Shown here in pieces: positions 1,419 through 15,366 of a stretch of DNA of 45,266 bases. The stretch lies in IMG/VR virus record IMGVR_UViG_2531839130_000013; one strand, 5' to 3'. Position 1 is the first letter of the stretch; each line of letters starts with the position of its first letter. The stretch is from a virus. Lineage: Duplodnaviria; Heunggongvirae; Uroviricota; Caudoviricetes. The notes beneath the pieces are model-generated. The model was given only the letters and a program-made list of their open reading frames with translations. It did no database searches and was not told the DNA's origin. Position numbers and translations under genes: made by a program.

Positions 1419-3890
1419 TTAAAAATCAGCCTGACTCGGGATCAGTTTTTGCCAGATAGCTGAAACGTATTTTGCCTGGTAACGAGCGTCATCAAGTGCA
1501 TTATGGCGCTCACCTTCGAATGGGATAGCAGTTCTGGCATCGAAGTCTATGGCTTTCCCCAGCTCAACGATTGTGCGTACATCGCGATCGTTGTAGTAAC
1601 GCCACGGGCAGGGGATCCCCTGCCGCTCGTATGAACGGCGCAAAATAGTGTTGTCGAAGTTGGCTCCATTTCCCCAGACCTGAACAAAAAATTCACCGGA
1701 GTTTTCGTCGATAAATTCCCGCAATTGTAACAGTGCATCATCTAACGGGATTTCATCGGTCATAATGGCAGATTGCGCTTCGCGTGATTGTTTAAGCCAC
1801 CATTTAATGGTGTCCCGATCAATGACTCCGCCAGCAGTTTCCAGATCGATAGTCTTACTAAATTCCGGTCCCATATCTCCGGTTTGCGGATCGAAAAATA
1901 TTGCACCTATTGAGATAATCGGGGCATCGGGATTTTTTCCCATGGTTTCAAGGTCGATCATCAGATGAATCCCCGCTCTGCTGGTGGATGTGAGATTATG
2001 ATGACCGTTCGCCTTAATTAAGGGATCTGACGCCTCGCCAGTTTCACTATCGCTGGCATGATGCTGATTGCCGCCAGTGTTCTCCTTGTGCTGATGCGCA
2101 GTGCCTTCCATTTCCTCCGGATCATTTTCCTGAACTTCAGGCTGATTCTCTCCATCGAATATTTCCTGGTATGTTGCGTCACCCATCACCGCACCACAAT
2201 CAGGGCAGTTGCCGCCACCGCTCTGACCGCAGGCGGTGCAGATCTTTTCCGGTTCCTGTTGCACTACTGGTTCAGGTTGTTTCGTTTCTGGCTCGTTTTG
2301 TTGCGTATTTTGGCTGTTTTGTTCCGCTTTCTGGTCGTTCTGTTCCGTTTCTTGCTGGTTCTGGTTCGCAGAATCGCGGGTCTGGATCCCCTTAACCCAT
2401 TTCGGATCATTCGGGTCGCTAATCCCTTCAACAAATTCACCACGTGATACTGCAAGCAGTTCATCGGCGTCAGGCTGGCTGATATTGGCTGCCTGCATAA
2501 TTTTGTTTACTTCGTCAGCGGTAACTTTTACCGGTTCTGGCTGTGCGGTCGTGTCAGATGCACCAGTATTTTGTTGTGAACCTGAGTATGTACTGTTTTT
2601 GCGGGCGAAATATTCTTCTTTCGTGATTTCAGTAGCCCCGGCAGCCAGCGCCTTATCCAGACCAGAAAGTTTGTTTGCGCGACCGTATTTTTCGCCATCC
2701 TTGTCGGTGAAGAGGAAGTAGAACGGCCCCTCACGCTCTACAGATGGTTCGACTTCCACTTTGCATTCGGTTTTTTCGTTGTCCGGAATTGCCGTTTCCA
2801 CTGCATCAGTTTCTGGTACTGGCGACGAGAGAGTATCAGTTGCGCTCTGATTTGTTCCTTCATCTTCAAACACGCCCTTTGTAGTCAGGTATTCAGTAAT
2901 GTATTTGTTCAGTGCCACAGGATCTTTGTGAATGTCGATCGGACGTCCACGGACAAGGCCAAAAATAGTCTGGCGGTCGTAGCGAAGGGCATCAGGCTGT
3001 TTGCGCATCGATGCCGAGATACGCTTCCAGTCTTCGCGGTCGTTGTCGATAACTTCATTTTTTGCCCAGCGATGGATGCTGCCGTCAATGTTTCCGGCAT
3101 CCACATCACCAGGCCAGAGAGCGTAGGCCAGTTCGTCATCCAGTGTTTTCCATGTCTGCTTGTATTCGCGATGAATGACTGCAGTGACAGGGGAGATATT
3201 TTCTGCTGAGTTTTCAGTGTGCTGTCGGTTGACTCTGGCGCGGGCGAGATCAACAGCAGACGTGTATTTTCCGGTTTCCTTGCGTTCACCTTCGCGACGT
3301 TTTTTCCAGATGCGCATCTCTGCCTGAATTTCGGGCCATTTAGCTCCAGGCTTACATTTATGCTTAACCCACCCGATGGCATGCAACTTAAGTTCTGGAT
3401 ACATGGCGTTAACTTCTGGCATTTTCATCAACGCTTCAACGATATGTCCGTCGAATGTTGCCATGTCTTCCTGCAACAATTCCTGCGCGCTAATCACCAT
3501 ATCAACGGTGATGTTTTCACATGTGTCGAACTTAACCATGACAGCGTTCTGTACTTCAGGGGCCAGCTTGTCAAAAGTGACGTTCATCGGATCTGATTCA
3601 GTCTCAACCGGGACAAAGGAAGCAGACTCCTCATCCCAGCGGTTTTCCTGCATATATTCAGCATCCCAGGAATCGAGGGCAGGGCGGGGTATACCGGGTT
3701 TATCCTCGCAAACAAGAAATTTATAAGCGCAGTCCTGAGCAGCCGGATAATGCTCCAGGAATTGCCAGTGAAATTTTGCGCGGGCGCGACGTTCATCACC
3801 GGCTTCAATGGCAGTGGCTACAGCGACTGCACCTTCTTCCTTTATTGCCTGTTCGTCCGGAATGGCGGCGCAAATAAAGACTTTACTCAT
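1419..3890 (-). CDS. Large exonuclease-like protein with C-terminal DnaQ-like (DEDDh) 3'-5' exonuclease domain
   Basis: 823-aa ORF. C-terminal third has exonuclease motifs (IDLET..., HNALDDARY); central part is acidic and Q/N/E-rich with a Cys4 cluster (CTACGQSGGGNCPDCG). Sits where lambdoid recombination genes lie. Confidence 0.6.
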   Translation of the reverse strand: MSKVFICAAIPDEQAIKEEGAVAVATAIEAGDERRARAKFHWQFLEHYPAAQDCAYKFLVCEDKPGIPRPALDSWDAEYMQENRWDEESASFVPVETESDPMNVTFDKLAPEVQNAVMVKFDTCENITVDMVISAQELLQEDMATFDGHIVEALMKMPEVNAMYPELKLHAIGWVKHKCKPGAKWPEIQAEMRIWKKRREGERKETGKYTSAVDLARARVNRQHTENSAENISPVTAVIHREYKQTWKTLDDELAYALWPGDVDAGNIDGSIHRWAKNEVIDNDREDWKRISASMRKQPDALRYDRQTIFGLVRGRPIDIHKDPVALNKYITEYLTTKGVFEDEGTNQSATDTLSSPVPETDAVETAIPDNEKTECKVEVEPSVEREGPFYFLFTDKDGEKYGRANKLSGLDKALAAGATEITKEEYFARKNSTYSGSQQNTGASDTTAQPEPVKVTADEVNKIMQAANISQPDADELLAVSRGEFVEGISDPNDPKWVKGIQTRDSANQNQQETEQNDQKAEQNSQNTQQNEPETKQPEPVVQQEPEKICTACGQSGGGNCPDCGAVMGDATYQEIFDGENQPEVQENDPEEMEGTAHQHKENTGGNQHHASDSETGEASDPLIKANGHHNLTSTSRAGIHLMIDLETMGKNPDAPIISIGAIFFDPQTGDMGPEFSKTIDLETAGGVIDRDTIKWWLKQSREAQSAIMTDEIPLDDALLQLREFIDENSGEFFVQVWGNGANFDNTILRRSYERQGIPCPWRYYNDRDVRTIVELGKAIDFDARTAIPFEGERHNALDDARYQAKYVSAIWQKLIPSQADF

Positions 3891-3982: not shown

Positions 3983-4174
3983 TTAAAGACCTGCCGGGAT
4001 TTCGTTATTATCCTGGTGAATAACTTTATCGACCGGGTAACAGTTACCGGGAATTTTCTGTTCGGTTGCTGCAGTCATACATTCCTGCATTGTCCTGTGA
4101 ACACTGACTGCAATATCAACTGGCTCTCCGGAAACAAGATAAACTGTCAGAACAAGCGCAAATGCTGAATTCAT
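3983..4174 (-). CDS. ydfD: Small membrane protein, YdfD-like (Qin prophage lysis protein family)
   Basis: 63-aa product MNSAFALVLTVYLVSGEPVD... with N-terminal hydrophobic segment; its ATG overlaps the dicB stop (ATGA). Start chosen at the internal Met of the 81-aa track ORF. Assignment from memory of Qin prophage synteny. Confidence 0.45.
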   Translation of the reverse strand: MNSAFALVLTVYLVSGEPVDIAVSVHRTMQECMTAATEQKIPGNCYPVDKVIHQDNNEIPAGL

Positions 4175-4359
4175 TGTGCACATCCTTTTGGCATCAGACG
4201 TAAACGAGCCAGCATTGAAACAATGCATATTTTATTTAATAGCTCCCCTTCTTGTTTTCTCTTGTTAATGGCATCTTCAGTAAATACTGAGTTACTGATA
4301 GTGACACCAATTTCAAAACAACCTTCAGACGTATTAACGTTTGGTAATAACGTTTCCAT
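4171..4359 (-). CDS. dicB: Cell-division inhibitor DicB-like protein (62 aa)
   Basis: Internal Met of the 97-aa track ORF gives METLLPNVNTSEGCFEIGVTISN...LMPKGCAQ, 62 aa, matching my recollection of DicB almost residue for residue; GAGGA Shine-Dalgarno about 9 nt upstream; directly downstream of the DicF sRNA as in Qin. Confidence 0.6.
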   Translation of the reverse strand: METLLPNVNTSEGCFEIGVTISNSVFTEDAINKRKQEGELLNKICIVSMLARLRLMPKGCAQ

Positions 4360-4528
4360 TATCGCGTCCTCAACAATGAATTTTGTGATGCGGTGCCTGG
4401 TGCCTCCAGGTGACGTTAACCAGTTAACAATTAACGCCGGATACAGAGAACCCACCCATAACACTGTTTTTGGTTTTAACTGTTCCGCGTGCGCTTAGCC
4501 GCATTCACCGCATCACAAAATTCACTTT

Positions 4529-6143: not shown

Positions 6144-6241
6144 GTTCTTACGCCTCGGGCTGGCTACTTAACCCCTGACCACTGCCTGGTAACTCGAAGT
6201 ATTGCCCTGCATTATGTGGGGCGGGGTGGGTTGATATTTTT

Positions 6242-6269
6242 AGTTTAATAAACATTAAACTTAAGTCAA
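6242..6269 (-). promoter_or_regulatory. Candidate leftward early promoter (pL-like): -35 TTGACT, 16-bp spacer, -10 TAAACT on the minus strand
   Basis: Minus-strand hexamers are identical to those of the candidate rightward promoter at 7257-7286; ACTAAAC-like operator motifs nearby (6254-6260, 6276-6282). Confidence 0.4.
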
Positions 6270-6353
6270 GTAAAAACTAAACCGCAGGGCGTAACAAACA
6301 CAACGCTTTTGATAAAGTCGTTGCGGTTGTTATGTTTCTATTGGTAGTGAAAG

Positions 6354-6632
6354 TTAGGGAAACTGGCGTCTTGCGTGGATCACGTTTACTACTTCAACGC
6401 TTGATGTTGTTACGCGGTATAGAATTATATAGTTAGGGTGGGCTACAATCTCACGCAAGCCAGGTACTCTGTCGCTTGGTGGGTATAAATACGGATGTTC
6501 GGATAACGGCAGCACACAACCCCTTAATCGCTGCCATAAGCGTTCAGCCGCATCTATGTCGAAACGAGCAATATAACTAGTTATATCATCTAGGTCGGTA
6601 TCTGCGCTTTCAAGCCATAACACGGGTAACAT
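6354..6632 (-). CDS. parE: ParE/RelE-family type II toxin (about 92 aa)
   Basis: C-terminal region REIVAHPNYIILYRV...VEVVNVIHARRQFP is typical of the ParE/RelE fold; start placed at internal Met (MLPVLWLE...) abutting the antitoxin stop. Sizes (92 aa toxin, 63 aa antitoxin, upstream repressor) match the three-component PaaR-PaaA-ParE prophage modules of E. coli O157 as I recall them. Confidence 0.75.
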   Translation of the reverse strand: MLPVLWLESADTDLDDITSYIARFDIDAAERLWQRLRGCVLPLSEHPYLYPPSDRVPGLREIVAHPNYIILYRVTTSSVEVVNVIHARRQFP

Positions 6633-6633
6633 T

Positions 6634-6825
6634 TTACTGCTTGCTCCGTTCCTTGCGCATTTTAGCAAAGCGTTCTGCCATTCTGCGCTCAACTTCGTCA
6701 TGGGGAATTGCTGGGCGTGGATCTGCAAGGCTCGTTGCTACTTTTGCACGCAGCCATTCGTTGTAACTGTTTTCTTGTTCAATGGTTTCAAATTCAGAAA
6801 CCATTGGTGAAAGGGCTCTATTCAT
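6634..6825 (-). CDS. Antitoxin partner of the ParE-like toxin (63 aa, PaaA-like)
   Basis: Start MNRALSPMVSEF... preceded by GGAGGA SD; small acidic/basic protein immediately upstream of the toxin with near-adjacent stop/start. Confidence 0.6.
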   Translation of the reverse strand: MNRALSPMVSEFETIEQENSYNEWLRAKVATSLADPRPAIPHDEVERRMAERFAKMRKERSKQ

Positions 6826-6845
6826 GTTTCCTCCGGTTTTATAAC

Positions 6846-7217
6846 TCAGGCGCGGCGGCATTTTTGCGCCGCAATCCATCTCGCTATGAGATCTTCCATT
6901 GATTCTTTTTTCTGCTTTAACTCGCTGATTATCTGGCGTTGCTCATCCTCAGGGAAGGCTGAAAAAATCTGCAATAATTCCAGTTGATTAGACGTTAACC
7001 CTGCATGTGGTGGAGAAACCTCCGGTTGTTCTGCGTATTCCGCATCCAGATACCCTTCCGGCATCCCGTATGTTTGCTCTATTCTTCTGGCAGCCTTTTC
7101 TCCAAACGAGGCTCTCCCACTCATTAGTTGAGATAGGTAGCTCTTCTCTTTGGGTGGCAGAGTTTTATCTTTAAACCACTCCTTGAGACGTAAACGGCGA
7201 ATTTCTTTTTTTTGCAT
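6846..7217 (-). CDS. Phage repressor-like HTH regulator (cI/DicA/PaaR-like), probably leaderless
   Basis: HTH-like segment KSYLSQLMSGRASFGEKAARRIEQTYGMPEGYLD; C-terminal LELLQIFSAFPEDEQ resembles the DicA C-terminus. Start set at MQKK (7217) because the longer 158-aa reading runs through the divergent promoter and the cro-like start; a GATAAT -10 sits 6 nt upstream of this ATG. Confidence 0.7.
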   Translation of the reverse strand: MQKKEIRRLRLKEWFKDKTLPPKEKSYLSQLMSGRASFGEKAARRIEQTYGMPEGYLDAEYAEQPEVSPPHAGLTSNQLELLQIFSAFPEDEQRQIISELKQKKESMEDLIARWIAAQKCRRA

Positions 7218-7223
7218 GTGGTA

Positions 7224-7305
7224 ATTATCTTTAGTAATCACTAAACAAGCAAATACTTGACTTAATGGTTTATTAAACACTAAACTCTCAAAAAAAACAC
7301 TAAAC
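7224..7305. promoter_or_regulatory. Divergent promoter/operator region: leftward pRM-like promoter, rightward pR-like promoter, three CACTAAAC repeats
   Basis: Leftward -10 GATAAT (7224-7229 on +) and -35 TTGCTT (7247-7252) with 17-bp spacer; rightward -35 TTGACT 7257-7262, 18-bp spacer, -10 TAAACT 7281-7286; direct repeats CACTAAAC at 7239-7246, 7278-7285, 7298-7305. Confidence 0.45.
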
Positions 7306-7315
7306 CGAGGAAGGT

Positions 7316-7618
7316 ATGACATTAAAAGAGTTTATTAAATCATTGAGGGTTGGTGATGCTAAGAAATTCGCAGCCAGACTTGGTGTATCGCCATCTTACT
7401 TATCGCAAATGGCGTCTGGACGAGCAGCTATATCTCCAACACGCGCCCTTATGATCGAATCTGCGACGGAAGGCCAAGTAAGTAGGGCGGAGCTACGACC
7501 CCATGATTGGGAGCTTATTTGGCCTGAGTATGCGAGCGGCATTCGTTTGGGGCAAACACATGTAGTTCATGCTGAAGGTGATTGTAGTGCATGCTTATCT
7601 GATGGAGTTGATTCATGA
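7316..7618 (+). CDS. Cro-like HTH protein (YdaS-like)
   Basis: 100-aa ORF divergent from the repressor, GAGGAAGG SD; HTH-like FAARLGVSPSYLSQMASGRAAISPTRAL; position equivalent to cro. Confidence 0.65.
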   Translation: MTLKEFIKSLRVGDAKKFAARLGVSPSYLSQMASGRAAISPTRALMIESATEGQVSRAELRPHDWELIWPEYASGIRLGQTHVVHAEGDCSACLSDGVDS

Positions 7619-8040
7619 AAATCAAGCATGAACACATCCGCATGGCGATGAATGCCTGGGCGCATCCGGACGGTGAAAAAGTTCCGGCTGCGAAAATTAC
7701 CAAAGCGTATTTCGAGCTGGGAATGACGTTCCCGGAACTGTATAACGACAGCCATCCGGAAGCCCTGGCTCGCAATACTCAGAAAATTTTCCGCTGGGTG
7801 GAGAAAGACACCCCTGATGCGGTTAAAAAAATTCAGGCGTTGTTACCAGCTATCGAAAAAGCAATGCCGCCTCTGCTGGTGGCCCGAATGCGCAGCCACA
7901 GTTCAGCCTGGTTTCGGGAGCTGGTGGAGACGCGGGAACGGCTGGTGAGAGACGCTGATGATTTTGTCGCAGTGGCGATCGCTGGTTTCAACCAGATGAA
8001 TCGTGGTGGCCCTGCAGGAAATATTGTGGCTGTGCATTGA
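7615..8040 (+). CDS. YdaT-like protein (cII-position regulator / putative toxin family)
   Basis: 141-aa ORF starting MKIKHEHI..., overlapping the stop of the Cro-like gene; synteny and N-terminus resemble Rac prophage YdaT as I recall it. Confidence 0.5.
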   Translation: MKIKHEHIRMAMNAWAHPDGEKVPAAKITKAYFELGMTFPELYNDSHPEALARNTQKIFRWVEKDTPDAVKKIQALLPAIEKAMPPLLVARMRSHSSAWFRELVETRERLVRDADDFVAVAIAGFNQMNRGGPAGNIVAVH

Positions 8041-8105
8041 CTCGCAATATTCATACCGGATCACTTCCGGCAATTTGTGAGTAAAAAGATTCGGTATCAA
8101 AAGAG

Positions 8106-9152
8106 GTGAGTATGGCTAACGCCTGGCTCAGATTATGGCATGACATGCCAAACGATCCTAAGTGGCGAACAATTTCCAGGTTGTCAGGACAGCCAATCGC
8201 AACAGTGATGGCTGTGTATATCCACCTTCTGGTGAGTGCGTCACGAAATGTCACGACATGTCACGGTGTGTCACTACGTGGTCACATTGATGTCACGGCG
8301 GAAGATTTAGCAAGTGCGCTTGATGTGACGGAAGAAGTAATTGATTCAATTTTACAGGCAATGCAGGGGCGGGTACTTGATGGAGATTTGATCAGTGGAT
8401 GGGAAAAACGCCAGGTACTGAAAGAGGACAATGGCAACGTTTCACAAACCGCGAAATCCCCGGCAGAGCGCAAGAGAGCGCAGCGCGAGAGGGAAAAATT
8501 ACGAAAACAGAATGAGGGGGCGCGCGACGAGTCACGCATCTGTCACGACATGTCACGACGAGTCACGACAGATAAAGATACAGATAAAGAATTAAACCCC
8601 ACACATAACGCGCGCGTGCGAGAGAGTGCTCCTGCCAGTGAGGCAAATGGCGTGCCGTTGCAAACAGCGGAACCTGATTACCTGGAAGGCCTGAGCGAAC
8701 CCATCGGGAAATTTCCGATGACCGATGGCTGGCATCCGTCGCCGGATTTTCGACGACGGGCTGCGCTGTGGGGCGTGGCTCTTCCTGAGCCGGAATTTAC
8801 ACCAGCTGAACTTTCCGCCTTCCGGGACTACTGGGCAGCGGAGGGCAAAGTGTTCACGCAGGTTCAGTGGGAGCAGAAATTCGCCCGTCACGTAAATCAC
8901 GTCAGGGCGCAGGCTAAACCAGTCAGCAAGGGGGTAAACCATGCAGCAGCACCAGGTGGCACCGCATCACGGGCAGTTCAGGAAATTCGGGCAGCACGTG
9001 AGCAGTGGGAACGTGAAAACGGATTTATCAGCGACGGAAACGGCCTGGAAGCTGTGGGAACTCATGGGGGAGGTTTATTCGAACCGCTGGACCCAGAAGA
9101 ACGGGGCCGCACCTTCGAAGCTCTGGATTGCACAGATTGGCGCGATGACTGA
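8106..9152 (+). CDS. Replication initiation protein (O-like; YdaU/DUF1376-type N-terminus)
   Basis: 348-aa ORF with N-terminal WLRLWHDMPNDPKWRTI motif; two clusters of TGTCACG iterons lie inside the coding sequence, as the lambda ori lies inside O; immediately followed by a P-like gene. Confidence 0.65.
   Translation: MSMANAWLRLWHDMPNDPKWRTISRLSGQPIATVMAVYIHLLVSASRNVTTCHGVSLRGHIDVTAEDLASALDVTEEVIDSILQAMQGRVLDGDLISGWEKRQVLKEDNGNVSQTAKSPAERKRAQREREKLRKQNEGARDESRICHDMSRRVTTDKDTDKELNPTHNARVRESAPASEANGVPLQTAEPDYLEGLSEPIGKFPMTDGWHPSPDFRRRAALWGVALPEPEFTPAELSAFRDYWAAEGKVFTQVQWEQKFARHVNHVRAQAKPVSKGVNHAAAPGGTASRAVQEIRAAREQWERENGFISDGNGLEAVGTHGGGLFEPLDPEERGRTFEALDCTDWRDD
8239..8298. repeat. Iteron cluster 1: about six copies of (T)GTCACG at roughly 10-bp spacing
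   Basis: gcgTCACGaaaTGTCACGacaTGTCACGgtgTGTCACtacgtgGTCACattgaTGTCACG read directly from the sequence. Confidence 0.6.
8527..8564. repeat. Iteron cluster 2: four copies of GTCACG(A) followed by an A/T-rich tract (8565-8595)
   Basis: GAGTCACGcatcTGTCACGacaTGTCACGacgaGTCACGacag then gataaagatacagataaagaattaaa; iterons plus AT-rich region are ori-like. Confidence 0.55.
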
Positions 9153-10402: not shown

Positions 10403-10834
10403 TTGCCGGAGGCACCTGTGGCAAAAGTATTTACACCAGAAGAGCGGGAAAAAATTAAAGGGCAGGTTATTGAACTCGTGCGCCAGAGTGGGCGCGAGAC
10501 GTTACGGCAACTGGAAGCTAAAACAGGGGCGACAAGATACCTGATGAGCGTTCTCGCCAGAGAGCTGGTTGCCAGTGGTGATGTATACAACTCTGGCTAC
10601 GGGTTATTCCCGTCTGAACAGGCTCGTAAGGACTGGATAAAGGCCCGCAAAAAGATGTCGAAAGCAGCAGTGAAAAAAAAGAGCGACCCGGACTTGGTTT
10701 ATTCATTACCAGACGGAGAAATACGTCGTTACAACAGACGACAGAACATAATCTGTCGCGAGTGCCGGAAGAGTGAGGTTATGCAGCGAGTGCTGGCGTT
10801 TTATCAGGGGAATTTTGAGGAGGAGGTACTGTGA
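10403..10834 (+). CDS. Hypothetical protein (143 aa)
   Basis: ORF abutting the previous stop; contains a CxxC pair near the C-terminus (CRECRKSE); no family recognised. Confidence 0.4.
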   Translation: MPEAPVAKVFTPEEREKIKGQVIELVRQSGRETLRQLEAKTGATRYLMSVLARELVASGDVYNSGYGLFPSEQARKDWIKARKKMSKAAVKKKSDPDLVYSLPDGEIRRYNRRQNIICRECRKSEVMQRVLAFYQGNFEEEVL

Positions 10835-11395: not shown

Positions 11396-12082
11396 ATGAC
11401 CACAATAAATACGTTTATGACAGTTGCTGATTTCAAACGGCCTAAATTGGAGCTCCCAAACGGGGCAAACAAACTACTACTGCACTCTTGCTGTGCTCCA
11501 TGTTCCGGTGAAGTGATGGAGGCGCTTCAGGCCTCGGGAATCGACTACACCATCTTTTTCTACAACCCGAACATTCATCCTCAGAAAGAGTATTTAATTC
11601 GTAAGGATGAGAATATTCGCTTTGCTGAACAACACGGCGTGCAGTTTATCGATGCTGATTACGACACAGACAACTGGTTTGAACGTGCCAAAGGAATGGA
11701 ATGGGAGCCCGAGAGGGGGATCCGTTGTACCATGTGTTTTGACATGCGTTTTGAGCGGACAGCGTTGTACGCTGCTGAAAATGGTTTCAGTGTGATCAGC
11801 AGTTCGCTGGGCATTTCACGCTGGAAAAATATGCAGCAGGTTAACGACTGTGGGCGGCGAGCCGTCGCGCATTATCCGGGAATGGTGTACTGGGATTATA
11901 ACTGGCGCAAGCAGGGCGGCTCGTCCCGTATGATTGAAATCAGCAAGCGCGAAAAATTCTATCAGCAGGAATATTGTGGCTGTGTGTATTCTCTGCGCGA
12001 TACCAATCTACACCGCAAATCTCAGGGACGCCCTCTTATCAAAATTGGTCAACTCCACTACGGTAAAGAAGAGAAGGAGTGA
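11396..12082 (+). CDS. queH: QueH-like protein (DUF208, epoxyqueuosine reductase family)
   Basis: N-terminal [11 protein letters not shown] motif plus downstream conserved Cys (CTMCFD, YCGCV) match the signature of QueH/DUF208 as I recall it; stand-alone gene between replication genes and the hok locus. Confidence 0.6.
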
Positions 12083-12915: not shown

Positions 12916-13965
12916 GTGCGGGTATTACTTCGACCTGTTCTGGTGCCGGAACTTGGGGTGGTTATCGTTAAGCCAGGTCGTGAATCCATGCAGGTATTCC
13001 ATAACGGCAGAGTGCTGGTTGAACCGGAGCCAAAAAGCATGCGCGGTCTGCCGTCCGGGGTCGTTCCTGCCGTTCGCCAGCCGCTGGCGGAAGACAAATC
13101 TCTGCTGCCATTTTTCAGCGATGAGCGGGTGATTCGTGCTGCCGGCGGCGCTGGTGCACTGTCTGACTGGCTCCTGCGTCATGTTAAATCCTGCCAGTGG
13201 CCTCATGGTGACTACCATCACAGTGAAACCGTCATACATCGTTACGGTACCGGCGCGATGGTGCTGTGCTGGCACTGCGACAACCAGCTGCGTGACCAGA
13301 CATCCGAATCACTCGGGCAACTTGCTCATCAAAACCTGTCAGCATGGATGATTGACGTCATACGCCATGCAGTGAATGGCACGCAGGAGCGGGAATTATC
13401 GCTGGCTGAATTATCCTGGTGGGCGGTCCGCAATCAGGTGGCGGACGCGCTTCCGGAGGCAGTATTACGTCGTTCTCTGGGGTTACGTGCGGAAAAAATC
13501 CGCTCTGTGTACCGTGAAAGCGACATCATACCGGGAGAGCAGACAGCCACCAGCATACTGAAGCAGCGCACAAAAAATATTGTGCTACCGCCTCACGCCC
13601 ACCAGCAACAGAACCCACCACAGGAAAAGACGGTGGTCAGCATTGCCGTTGATCCGGAGTCTCCTGAATCTTTCATGAAGCGACCTAAACGTCGCCGCTG
13701 GGTTAACGAAAAGTACACGCGCTGGGTTAAGACACAGCCGTGTGCATGTTGTGGTAAGCCAGCCGACGATCCCCATCACCTGATTGGTCACGGTCAGGGA
13801 GGGATGGGGACAAAAGCCCACGATATTTTCACGCTACCGCTGTGCCGGGAGCATCACAATGAACTTCATGCTGATCCGCTGGCATTTGAAGAAAAGCATG
13901 GTTCCCAGATTGATTTAATTTTTCGTTTTCTTGATCACGCCTTTGCAACCGGCGTGCTCGGGTAA
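12916..13965 (+). CDS. DUF968-family protein with C-terminal HNH-like Cys/His motif (YdfU-like)
   Basis: GTG start with GGAGG SD; C-terminus CACCGKPADDPHHLIGHGQGGMGTKAHDIFTLPLCREHHNELH is HNH-like; 349 aa like Qin YdfU. Confidence 0.55.
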   Translation: MRVLLRPVLVPELGVVIVKPGRESMQVFHNGRVLVEPEPKSMRGLPSGVVPAVRQPLAEDKSLLPFFSDERVIRAAGGAGALSDWLLRHVKSCQWPHGDYHHSETVIHRYGTGAMVLCWHCDNQLRDQTSESLGQLAHQNLSAWMIDVIRHAVNGTQERELSLAELSWWAVRNQVADALPEAVLRRSLGLRAEKIRSVYRESDIIPGEQTATSILKQRTKNIVLPPHAHQQQNPPQEKTVVSIAVDPESPESFMKRPKRRRWVNEKYTRWVKTQPCACCGKPADDPHHLIGHGQGGMGTKAHDIFTLPLCREHHNELHADPLAFEEKHGSQIDLIFRFLDHAFATGVLG

Positions 13966-13977
13966 AAGAGGTTACTG

Positions 13978-14349
13978 ATGCGTATAGAGTTTGTTTTGCC
14001 TTACCCGCCAACGGTGAACACCTACTGGCGACGTCGTGGCAGTACATATTTTGTATCAAAAGCCGGTGAGCGTTATCGCCGTGATGTGGCGCTCATTGTT
14101 CGCCAGCAGCGACTGAAATTAAATCTGTCCGGAAGGCTGGCGATCAGGATTATTGTGGAGCCACCGGATAAGCGCCGTCGTGACCTGGACAATATCCTGA
14201 AAGCGCCACTGGATGCACTGACACATGCGGGACTGCTTATCGACGACGAGCAGTTTGATGAAATTAATATTGTGCGCAGTCAGCTTGTACCTGGTGGTCG
14301 GCTGGGCGTGAAGATTTACGAAATTACAGGTGGTAACGATGGCACGTGA
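13978..14349 (+). CDS. rusA: Holliday junction resolvase RusA
   Basis: Translation aligns with E. coli RusA including DRRRRDLDN...DALT catalytic region; typical nin-region position upstream of Q. Confidence 0.8.
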
Positions 14350-14704
14350 TATTCAGATGGTTCTTGAGCGTTGGGGAGCGTGGGTGGCAAATAATCATGA
14401 GGATGTCACATGGCCATCGATTGCTGCTGGCTTTAAAGGATTAATACCGTCGAAAGTTAAATCGCGTCCGCAATGTTCCGACGATGACGCAATGATCATT
14501 TGTGGCTGTATGGCCCGGTTGAATAAGAACAACAAAGAATTACACGATTTGCTGGTAGATTATTACGTGGCGGGCATGACGTTTATGGCGCTAGCACGAA
14601 AGCATGGTCGTTCGGATTGCTGGGTTGGCCGTTTGTTGCAAAAGGCTGAAGGGATAGTTGACGGCATGTTGATGATGCTTGATATCAAGCTGGACATGGA
14701 CTGA
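14330..14704 (+). CDS. Late-gene antiterminator Q-like protein (about 120 aa, QuuD-type)
   Basis: Position immediately after rusA and before the lysis-side cargo; size matches short Q-family antiterminators; Cys-containing IICGCMARL segment. Start probably MARDIQ at 14339. Confidence 0.5.
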
Positions 14705-14720
14705 TAAAACTTAACTCACA

Positions 14721-14744
14721 TACCCTCTCCATGCGGAGAGGGTA
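14721..14744. terminator. Bidirectional hairpin between Q and the convergent lipoprotein gene
   Basis: Perfect 10-bp inverted repeat taccctctcc-atgc-ggagagggta between two convergent stop codons. Confidence 0.5.
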
Positions 14745-14748
14745 TGAA

Positions 14749-15228
14749 TTAAATGTTTTTATAATAACTCGCTTTTTCGTTAAAATTATTTTTGTTTTCT
14801 CTGGATGGAGAACTTACGTAGTTTTCCCATGCGCTATACGTTTTGATTAATGCTTCTCGCTCTGTAGGTGATTTTGTGTTTGCCTTGAGTTTTTCAAATG
14901 GTTCTTTTGCTGCATTTAAAACGATCATCATTTGCTCGATGTCGCAGTCAGCGATTGCTTTTGATATATCGGGATCCCAGCCAACTCTCACTAACATATC
15001 TTGCTTGCTGGAAGTAATAAATTGTGTAGTGTTGATTATCATTTCTCCCTTATATAGAAGCTTTAAAAAATTATTTTTGTTAACTTGCTGGGGCGTGTTG
15101 TCCAAGGTGATATTTTCGCATTTCTTTAAATACGCATAATGATCACTATTTCTGTTTTCTGCGGAAGATTGAGCCGTACACCCTGTAATGATCAATGTAC
15201 TTAATAATGTCAATGCTATTTTTTTCAT
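14749..15228 (-). CDS. Lipoprotein of unknown function (159 aa), AT-rich accessory gene
   Basis: N-terminal signal peptide with lipobox LIITGC; markedly lower GC than flanking phage genes; opposite strand to the late operon. Confidence 0.6.
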   Translation of the reverse strand: MKKIALTLLSTLIITGCTAQSSAENRNSDHYAYLKKCENITLDNTPQQVNKNNFLKLLYKGEMIINTTQFITSSKQDMLVRVGWDPDISKAIADCDIEQMMIVLNAAKEPFEKLKANTKSPTEREALIKTYSAWENYVSSPSRENKNNFNEKASYYKNI

Positions 15229-15304
15229 ATGGGCCTGCTTGTGAATTATCGTACAAGAAAAGTTCGACTAAATTTTATCGTAAAAAGACATCGCCGAACA
15301 GATG

Positions 15305-15332
15305 TTTACAATCGTAAAAAATCAAATATGCT
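15305..15332 (+). promoter_or_regulatory. Candidate sigma-70 promoter (TTTACA, 16-bp spacer, TATGCT), possible late pR'-type promoter
   Basis: Hexamers read from sequence, positioned about 35 nt upstream of an intrinsic terminator and upstream of the plus-strand cargo and lysis genes. Confidence 0.3.
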
Positions 15333-15366
15333 GTTAAGAGTGGTTACTTCGCCACACAGCTTAAAC

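Follow-up and report, generated by a model that had tools for sequence, protein, structure and literature searches.

A 45,266-nt stretch of DNA from a Caudoviricetes virus (IMG/VR record IMGVR_UViG_2531839130_000013; hereafter, the window) carries three minus-strand genes between positions 6354 and 7217, which an initial annotation, made from the letters alone, had described as a repressor followed by a toxin-antitoxin (TA) pair. We identify this locus, with little room for doubt, as the published paaR2-paaA2-parE2 operon, situated in a lambdoid prophage of the CP-933P type, within the immunity region. The system is a known one; papers have already described the module, its structures, and the circuit that regulates it. 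In the operon, paaR2 comes first and parE2 last:

6846-7217, minus strand: paaR2, a 123-amino-acid (aa) CI-analog repressor that starts MQKKEIRR and carries the E66 allele (PDB 7nkv_A/8c3l_A)
6634-6825, minus strand: paaA2, a 63-aa antitoxin (PDB 3zbe_A, 100%; Pfam PF21217)
6354-6632, minus strand: parE2, a 92-aa ParE-family toxin (PDB 5cw7_B/5cze, 100%; Pfam PF05016)

The proteins themselves carry much of this identification. A PDB search found all 92 residues of ParE2 to be identical to 5cw7_B/5cze; the same sequence is deposited as WP_001303511.1 of E. coli 2013C-4538, and it matches the Pfam ParE_toxin family (PF05016) at E=1.9e-16, over the gathering score. Residues 2-63 of PaaA2 share 100% identity with PDB 3zbe_A, and the sole domain of this protein is Pfam PaaA2 (PF21217; E=1e-19), a DNA-binding domain being absent. 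The entry 3ZBE is PaaA2 of E. coli O157, and 5CW7 is the PaaA2-ParE2 complex (PMC5086665). PaaR2 shares residues 1-65, without a single difference, with PDB 7nkv_A/8c3l_A, an entry titled "Phage repressor protein CI", and over its full length agrees at 122 of 123 positions with WP_001169687.1, which is encoded beside the same TA genes in E. coli. It consists of an N-terminal helix-turn-helix (HTH) domain and a C-terminal oligomerization domain and matches the transcriptional regulator family phrog_5736 at E=1.6e-39; a Pfam search of the protein gave zero matches and no S24 peptidase domain.

These results agree closely with the initial annotation, which shows that such an architecture can be recognized from the letters alone. 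The three minus-strand open reading frames (ORFs) fall exactly where it had placed them, and its reading of them as an HTH repressor followed by a small antitoxin and a toxin of ParE fold is borne out by the PDB identities and the Pfam matches; the profile search that it had proposed for the ParE/RelE and PaaA2 families returned the two Pfam families given above, confirming the ParE fold. What it had called a resemblance to the PaaR-PaaA-ParE modules of O157 prophages is, judging from the PDB matches and from a comparison with E. coli 2013C-4538, identity. Its description of the repressor as "cI/DicA-like" fits only in a loose sense. PaaR2 is a CI analog (PMC8630535), but the match to the DicA family (NF007257) is confined to the C-terminal residues 70-119 and scores 28.8 bits where the cut-off is 101, and we rejected it. 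We likewise rejected PaaR2 as a self-cleaving S24 repressor of the CI/LexA kind, given the absence of a Peptidase_S24 domain.

Because Pfam or PDB matches identify each of the three ORFs, they are real genes rather than chance ORFs. Longer overlapping ORFs exist at 6354-6728, 6634-6879, and 6846-7322, and we rejected these as the products since the PDB chains begin at the shorter forms. For the last of them the published N terminus of PaaR2, MQKKE (PMC8630535), leads to the same decision. The genes are tightly packed. A gap of 20 nt separates the co-directional paaR2 and paaA2, the ATG of paaA2 is preceded at 4 nt by a GGAGG ribosome-binding site, and a single nucleotide separates the paaA2 stop codon from the ATG of parE2.

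The DNA around the operon completes the identification. The following elements flank the three genes:

6242-6269, minus strand: PL933P-type promoter, TTGACT-16-TAAACT, reading leftward into a DUF1391 gene and beyond (consensus scan)
6243-6282: OL operator repeats (GTTTAATAAACATTAAAC, GTCAAGTAAAAACTAAAC), kin to the OR repeats (repeat and inverted-repeat analysis)
6293-6332, minus strand: stem-loop 3' of parE2 with a U-rich tract behind it (RNA folding)
7224-7252, minus strand: PRM933P-type promoter, with a -35 TTGCTT (7252-7247), a 17-nt spacer, and a -10 GATAAT (7229-7224)
7229-7305: OR region, with four repeats of ~18 bp at a spacing of ~20 bp
7257-7286, plus strand: PR933P-type promoter, TTGACT-18-TAAACT, driving ydaS-ydaT (consensus scan)
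7316-7618, plus strand: ydaS, a 100-aa Cro analog (Pfam YdaS_toxin, E=3.9e-12; HTH_3)
7608-7625: YdaT operator OM, TTGATTCATGAAAATCAA, at the ydaS/ydaT junction (motif match)
7615-8040, plus strand: ydaT, a 141-aa CII analog (Pfam YdaT_toxin, E=1.4e-9; phrog_163 CII-like activator, E=4e-45)

The window contains every regulatory element known from the literature, arranged as published, and the co-directional trio does lie, as had been proposed, between divergent PR/PRM promoters and a PL-type promoter, in the slot that rexAB occupies in lambda. The hexamers of PR and PL are identical to each other, as they are in the published system (PMC8630535). Four "GTTTAGTAA" repeats were footprinted there by both PaaR2 and YdaS (PMC8630535), and the OR region of the window agrees. 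Two of its inverted repeats (IRs) are good palindromes (IR1, 7229-7246; IR3, 7268-7285), whereas IR2 and IR4 retain the right half only (..CACTAAAC). Across the whole window we found 13 operator half-sites against 5.8 expected, clustered at OL and OR; the repeats themselves cluster at 7229-7305 and 6243-6282 only, which places the OL/PL copies ~1 kb from OR. TTGATTN6AATCAA, the motif defined by YdaT footprinting (PMC9986795), has a single perfect match in the window, at 7608-7625.

The geometry of PRM deserves separate mention. Read directly from the sequence, the end of its -10 element lies 6 nt ahead of the A (7217) of the paaR2 start codon, and a Shine-Dalgarno sequence is absent. This arrangement is consistent with a leaderless paaR2 mRNA in the window, of the kind established on the reference by 5' RACE and N-terminal sequencing (MQKKE) (PMC8630535). 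At the other end of the operon, the minus-strand RNA of 6265-6365 folds with -22.6 kcal/mol (z = -3.0), and the hairpin with its U-rich tract at 6293-6332 may, according to this fold, be the operon terminator; a simple terminator scan flagged no canonical terminator 3' of parE2. Of the two divergent regulators, YdaS agrees with its counterpart in E. coli 2013C-4538 at 99 of 100 residues. YdaT is a mosaic: it differs from the 2013C-4538 protein at 23 of 141 positions, and 17 of these 23 lie past residue 97, in the region of the tetramerization helix, while its N-terminal DNA-binding part is near the CP-933P type. Taken together, every sequence-testable hallmark of the PaaR-PaaA-ParE family and of a CP-933P-type immunity switch was found in the window.

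The circuit that these parts build has been worked out on the reference sequence. PaaR2 acts there as the CI analog; it represses PR933P and PL933P and auto-regulates the leaderless promoter PRM933P, which drives paaR2-paaA2-parE2 (Jurenas et al. 2021, PMC8630535). On PRM933P it activates at low concentration and represses at high concentration, and its repression of PR and PL exceeds that of its own promoter (PMC8630535). YdaS, the Cro analog, competes for the PaaR2 operators, giving two heritable expression states (PMC8630535), and YdaT, the CII analog, activates a PRE-type promoter that reads into the operon, in which paaA2-parE2 replaces rexA/rexB (PMC9986795). PaaA2 is labile, a substrate of both ClpAP and ClpXP, and lacks a DNA-binding domain; ParE2 localizes to the nucleoid and induces the SOS response (PMC8630535). 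Growth inhibition by ParE2 and its neutralization by PaaA2 are on record for identical sequences (PMC8630535, citing Hallez 2010), and the locus stabilizes an unstable mini-F plasmid through post-segregational killing (PMC8630535; also Hallez et al. 2010, as cited there). The methods behind this circuit comprise 5' RACE, N-terminal sequencing, electrophoretic mobility shift assays, DNase I footprints, green fluorescent protein reporters, single-cell analysis of bistability, and mini-F stabilization (PMC8630535, PMC9986795). The initial annotation had asked whether the repressor is the prophage immunity repressor, the TA regulator, or both. PaaR2 is both (PMC8630535). The annotation's idea of a prophage-stabilization device likewise has a published counterpart in the post-segregational killing just described.

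Because the proteins and the cis-elements are the same, we infer that the same circuit operates in the window. PaaR2, made from a leaderless PRM mRNA, would take the role of CI and bind both OR and OL; once bound, it would shut PR (and hence ydaS-ydaT and the replication genes) as well as PL, and would auto-regulate PRM. YdaS, in the role of Cro, would contend for the same operators and so create a bistable switch, and YdaT, in the role of CII, would bind OM at the ydaS/ydaT junction and turn on a PRE-type promoter directed back into the operon. The paaA2-parE2 pair would be carried on the transcript of the repressor, in the slot of lambda rexA-rexB, with the disordered PaaA2 wrapping around ParE2 and neutralizing it. 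Should the cassette be lost or replaced, PaaA2 would decay, and the ParE2 thereby freed would associate with the nucleoid and induce SOS. The outcome would be addiction to the prophage's own immunity cassette.

Several points weigh against this interpretation. The window differs from the studied sequence by PaaR2 G66E, by position 7288 at the edge of IR4, and by a diverged C-terminal half of YdaT. The system described in print comes from a defective prophage and the prophage of the window looks complete, and for this reason the switch may behave differently here during induction. Stabilization of the cassette as the native benefit of the TA pair stays hypothetical, with plasmid-loss assays as its support, because single-cell work saw no ParE2 activation in either switch state (PMC8630535).

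The differences from the reference are few. Over 6300-7320 (1021 bp), the window and the E. coli 2013C-4538 chromosome differ at 5 nt, and ParE2 and PaaA2 are unchanged. G66E, located in the linker after the HTH domain, is the sole residue change in PaaR2 relative to 2013C-4538 and to the allele common in E. coli, and position 7288 is the one nucleotide change in the OR region. The exact E66 sequence of PaaR2 occurs in 1676 index blocks of public assemblies and is thus widespread. Of 5426 complete E. coli genomes, 633 (~12%) contain the module as a whole, 576 of them at >=99% identity. In one assembly (GCA_910664845.1; 4650-5501 of the extracted locus), a polymorphic-toxin gene of the PT-VENN/Ntox25 type lies 3' of parE2, replacing the usual DUF1391 and kil/dicB genes. 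A search of a plasmid collection found the module once, in a 1.4-Mb record that is labeled a "plasmid" but is probably chromosomal. The single record with the module in a phage collection was coliphage Evi (LR597642), at 98.3% identity. Evi was isolated from infant fecal samples (PMC10910852), and it carries the module; the cassette is therefore not limited to defective prophages. The Evi record (LR597642.1) annotates paaR2 and paaA2 and leaves parE2 (~4125-4403) unannotated, although that gene is intact and its product identical to the ParE2 of the window.

We then looked at relatives of the switch outside E. coli, taking one genome per species and scoring TA homologs by tblastn within 3 kb at an E value of 1e-3 or better. 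PaaR2 homologs of 44-76% identity were found at 27 loci in other species, with hosts in Xenorhabdus, Photorhabdus, Yersinia, Morganella, Raoultella, Enterobacter, Erwinia, and others. A divergent YdaS homolog accompanies 22 of these 27 loci, and YdaT accompanies many. PaaA2 or ParE2 homologs were detected within 3 kb at none of the 27, and the sampled ORFs downstream of the PaaR2 homologs showed no ParE/RelE domain. Since PaaR2/YdaS switches thus exist in 27 species without a detectable PaaA2/ParE2 pair, we infer from this distribution that the pair is cargo, probably added to an older PaaR2/YdaS switch in the Escherichia lineage and traveling with an exchangeable immunity cassette. The same comparison supports placing PaaR2 in a lineage of immunity repressors. 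The PaaR2-type N-terminal domain is fused to Peptidase_S24 (PF00717), as in a classical cleavable CI, in Yersinia aleksiciae (3001-3633 of its extracted locus; E=5e-24) and in an Acerihabitans sp. (3001-3630 of its extracted locus; E=3e-29), and the repressor family looks like one in which an S24 domain and a short helical C terminus have been swapped. A similar S24 fusion is probably present at two further relative loci (L027 and L035) and possibly at a third (L028). In E. coli, Xenorhabdus, and Photorhabdus, the N-terminal domain bears the short helical C terminus and not S24.

This distribution bears directly on a different account of PaaR2, as a "split antitoxin", under which it would be a DNA-binding half that has come away from a ParD-like antitoxin and serves chiefly as regulator of the TA operon and not of a prophage. 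A three-component TA is what the system was first described as, PaaA2 has no DNA-binding domain of its own, and full repression of the operon requires PaaR (PMC4803016, PMC8630535), all of which would suit such an origin. It is nevertheless hard to reconcile with PaaR2 homologs that keep company with YdaS, and often YdaT, in 27 species where PaaA2/ParE2 went undetected nearby, with homologs bearing an S24 peptidase domain like that of classical CI, with operator copies at PL ~1 kb away, or with a repressor that acts harder on PR and PL than on its own promoter (PMC8630535). We consider this account highly improbable, and it is already largely refuted. The absence of the TA pair from related switches of other genera also favors the view of the pair as an entirely selfish passenger, maintained by addiction and of benefit to neither phage nor host. 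Its distribution in E. coli, patchy yet wide (633 of 5426 genomes), speaks for this view, as do its addictive behavior on plasmids and the lack of a phenotype in either switch state (PMC8630535). Against it stand protein sequences of the pair that are near-invariant across hundreds of genomes (the 576 records at >=99% identity) and the retention of an intact parE2 in the isolated coliphage Evi. Both observations also fit a function, and sequence alone cannot separate a passenger from a stabilizing device; on balance, we hold the passenger view to be somewhat unlikely.

A further possibility is that the TA pair serves as a Rex-like device for abortive infection or superinfection exclusion, made together with the repressor in the lysogen, in which an incoming phage shuts host transcription or triggers PaaA2 degradation, and the ParE2 thus released kills the infected cell. 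Many type II TA systems defend against phages. The position and expression logic of the pair are those of lambda rexAB, which it "replaces" (PMC9986795), and PaaA2 is protease-labile (PMC8630535). However, no PADLOC defense model matches any of the three proteins, none of the papers searched was found to tie PaaA2-ParE2 to phage defense, and ParE2 activation was not detected under the conditions tested (PMC8630535). Nor was a relation to RexA or RexB seen, Pfam giving only ParE_toxin and PaaA2; we rejected paaA2-parE2 as a RexAB homolog on this ground, which leaves a positional analogy only. A Rex-like role therefore appears unlikely to us. In a prophage that is apparently complete and possibly inducible, PaaA2-ParE2 might still be a functional replacement of RexAB against superinfecting phages, or a guard that kills recombinants in which 6230-7609 has been replaced by a heteroimmune phage, but we would give this suggestion a small chance. 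The reading that we prefer, a CP-933P-type immunity cassette that the TA pair would make addictive, leads to the prophage in which it lies.

The window is apparently a complete lambdoid prophage. From the left it encodes an integrase (1-1119), an exonuclease, the immunity region, DnaT-like and P-like replication genes, Q, and tRNAs, followed by lysis, terminase, and portal genes and by tail genes and tail fibers near 44 kb. Among complete E. coli genomes, the best match to the whole window covers 73% of it at 94.5% identity. The nearest relative overall is a prophage of E. coli RM8082, which aligns on both sides of the locus; homology breaks at ~6229/6230 and again at ~7609/7610. Both breakpoints are sharp, the left one just past the -10 element of PL and the right one within the YdaT operator. 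They therefore define the exchangeable unit as OL/PL, parE2, paaA2, paaR2, OR, and ydaS, with the CII analog outside. The corresponding slot of RM8082 (7275-8350 of its extracted locus) holds a LexA-family repressor and a Cro/CI-family gene and no TA. We rejected the idea that PaaR2 and this LexA-family repressor are diverged alleles; they share no similarity and are non-homologous replacements. A LexA box (CTGTN8ACAG), sought as a sign of an SOS-controlled antirepressor, was not found in the 45-kb window.

Other cargo lies to the right of the immunity region. Downstream of the replication genes, 10403-10834 (plus strand) encodes a homolog of a Ren-like exclusion protein (phrog_142, E=3e-46), and a cargo slot of the nin region holds a homolog of the epoxyqueuosine reductase QueH at 11396-12082 (plus strand; Pfam E=1.6e-65). 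The RM8082 prophage has a separate ParD/ParE pair (13382-13944 of its locus) at roughly the place of QueH. Just past the Q-like antiterminator gene, a 159-aa ORF at 14749-15228 (minus strand) matches phrog_8179, a family of unknown function, and gave no Pfam match; the segment that contains it, 14306-15366, has no match in the RM8082 prophage. Genes for tRNA-Met (CAT) and tRNA-Arg (TCT) at 16957-17206 (plus strand) lie downstream of a DNA methylase (15858-16907) and upstream of TerB-like and lysis genes. tRNA clusters of like kind are known in Stx-type lambdoid phages; no stx gene was seen in the window.

With the module, its structures, and its circuit published, and with the module present in ~12% of complete E. 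coli genomes, the discovery value of the locus is small. The window does provide a natural example of a TA-bearing immunity cassette in a full-length lambdoid prophage, swapped whole relative to a LexA-type region. Such whole-cassette exchange fits the published idea of a TA pair that forces its own immunity type to be kept. The cassette swap and the pattern of the TA pair as cargo are small additions to a known system.

How the locus compares with that system and with others can be stated briefly. Its closest counterpart is the module of CP-933P (E. coli O157:H7 EDL933), or Sp12 (Sakai), with which it shares gene order, gene sizes, and spacing; the layout of OR, OL, PRM, PR, and PL; YdaS and YdaT; and OM. 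ParE2 and PaaA2 are identical between the two, and PaaR2 agrees at 122 of 123 residues. Hallez et al. 2010 and Sterckx et al. 2016 reportedly studied this module. In contrast to CP-933P, the window has PaaR2 G66E, the change at 7288, the diverged C-terminal half of YdaT, and other genes to the left of PL, and its backbone is different and apparently complete where CP-933P is defective. The paralog paaR1-paaA1-parE1 of CP-933M, also from O157:H7, has the same three-component organization (PMC4803016, PMC8630535) but a separate specificity, such that PaaA1 fails on ParE2 and vice versa (PMC4803016); by exact identity, the proteins of the window are of the "2" type.

The likeness to canonical ParD-ParE systems (RK2, Caulobacter, and Vibrio cholerae ParDE2) lies in the ParE fold, a tightly coupled upstream antitoxin, and post-segregational killing, and ParE2 has weak PDB matches to 3kxe, 6x0a, and 5ceg (E of 1e-5 to 1e-3). 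Unlike ParD, PaaA2 lacks a ribbon-helix-helix (RHH) domain and matches no RHH/ParD model, and regulation falls to a separate repressor; we rejected the locus as a canonical ParDE because its antitoxin has no RHH. According to PMC10886550, moreover, ParE2 neither binds GyrA59 nor inhibits gyrase. The NCBIfam label of PaaA2, "RelB family antitoxin", comes from an equivalog built on the PaaA2 family itself.

The immunity region of lambda offers the wider parallel. Both have a repressor gene (leaderless in lambda and probably so in the window), divergent PRM and PR promoters, shared multi-site operators, a distant OL/PL, Cro and CII functions (their analogs in the window), and a pair of cargo genes that share the repressor transcript, as predicted for the window. 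The parts themselves differ: none is related in sequence to CI, Cro, CII, RexA, or RexB, the window has four operator repeats where lambda has three, PaaR2 lacks the S24 autocleavage domain, and the cargo is a ParE-type TA pair and not Rex. The likeness extends to the boundary of the cassette, which excludes the CII analog. cII lies outside imm434, a pattern similar to that at the cassette boundary of the window.

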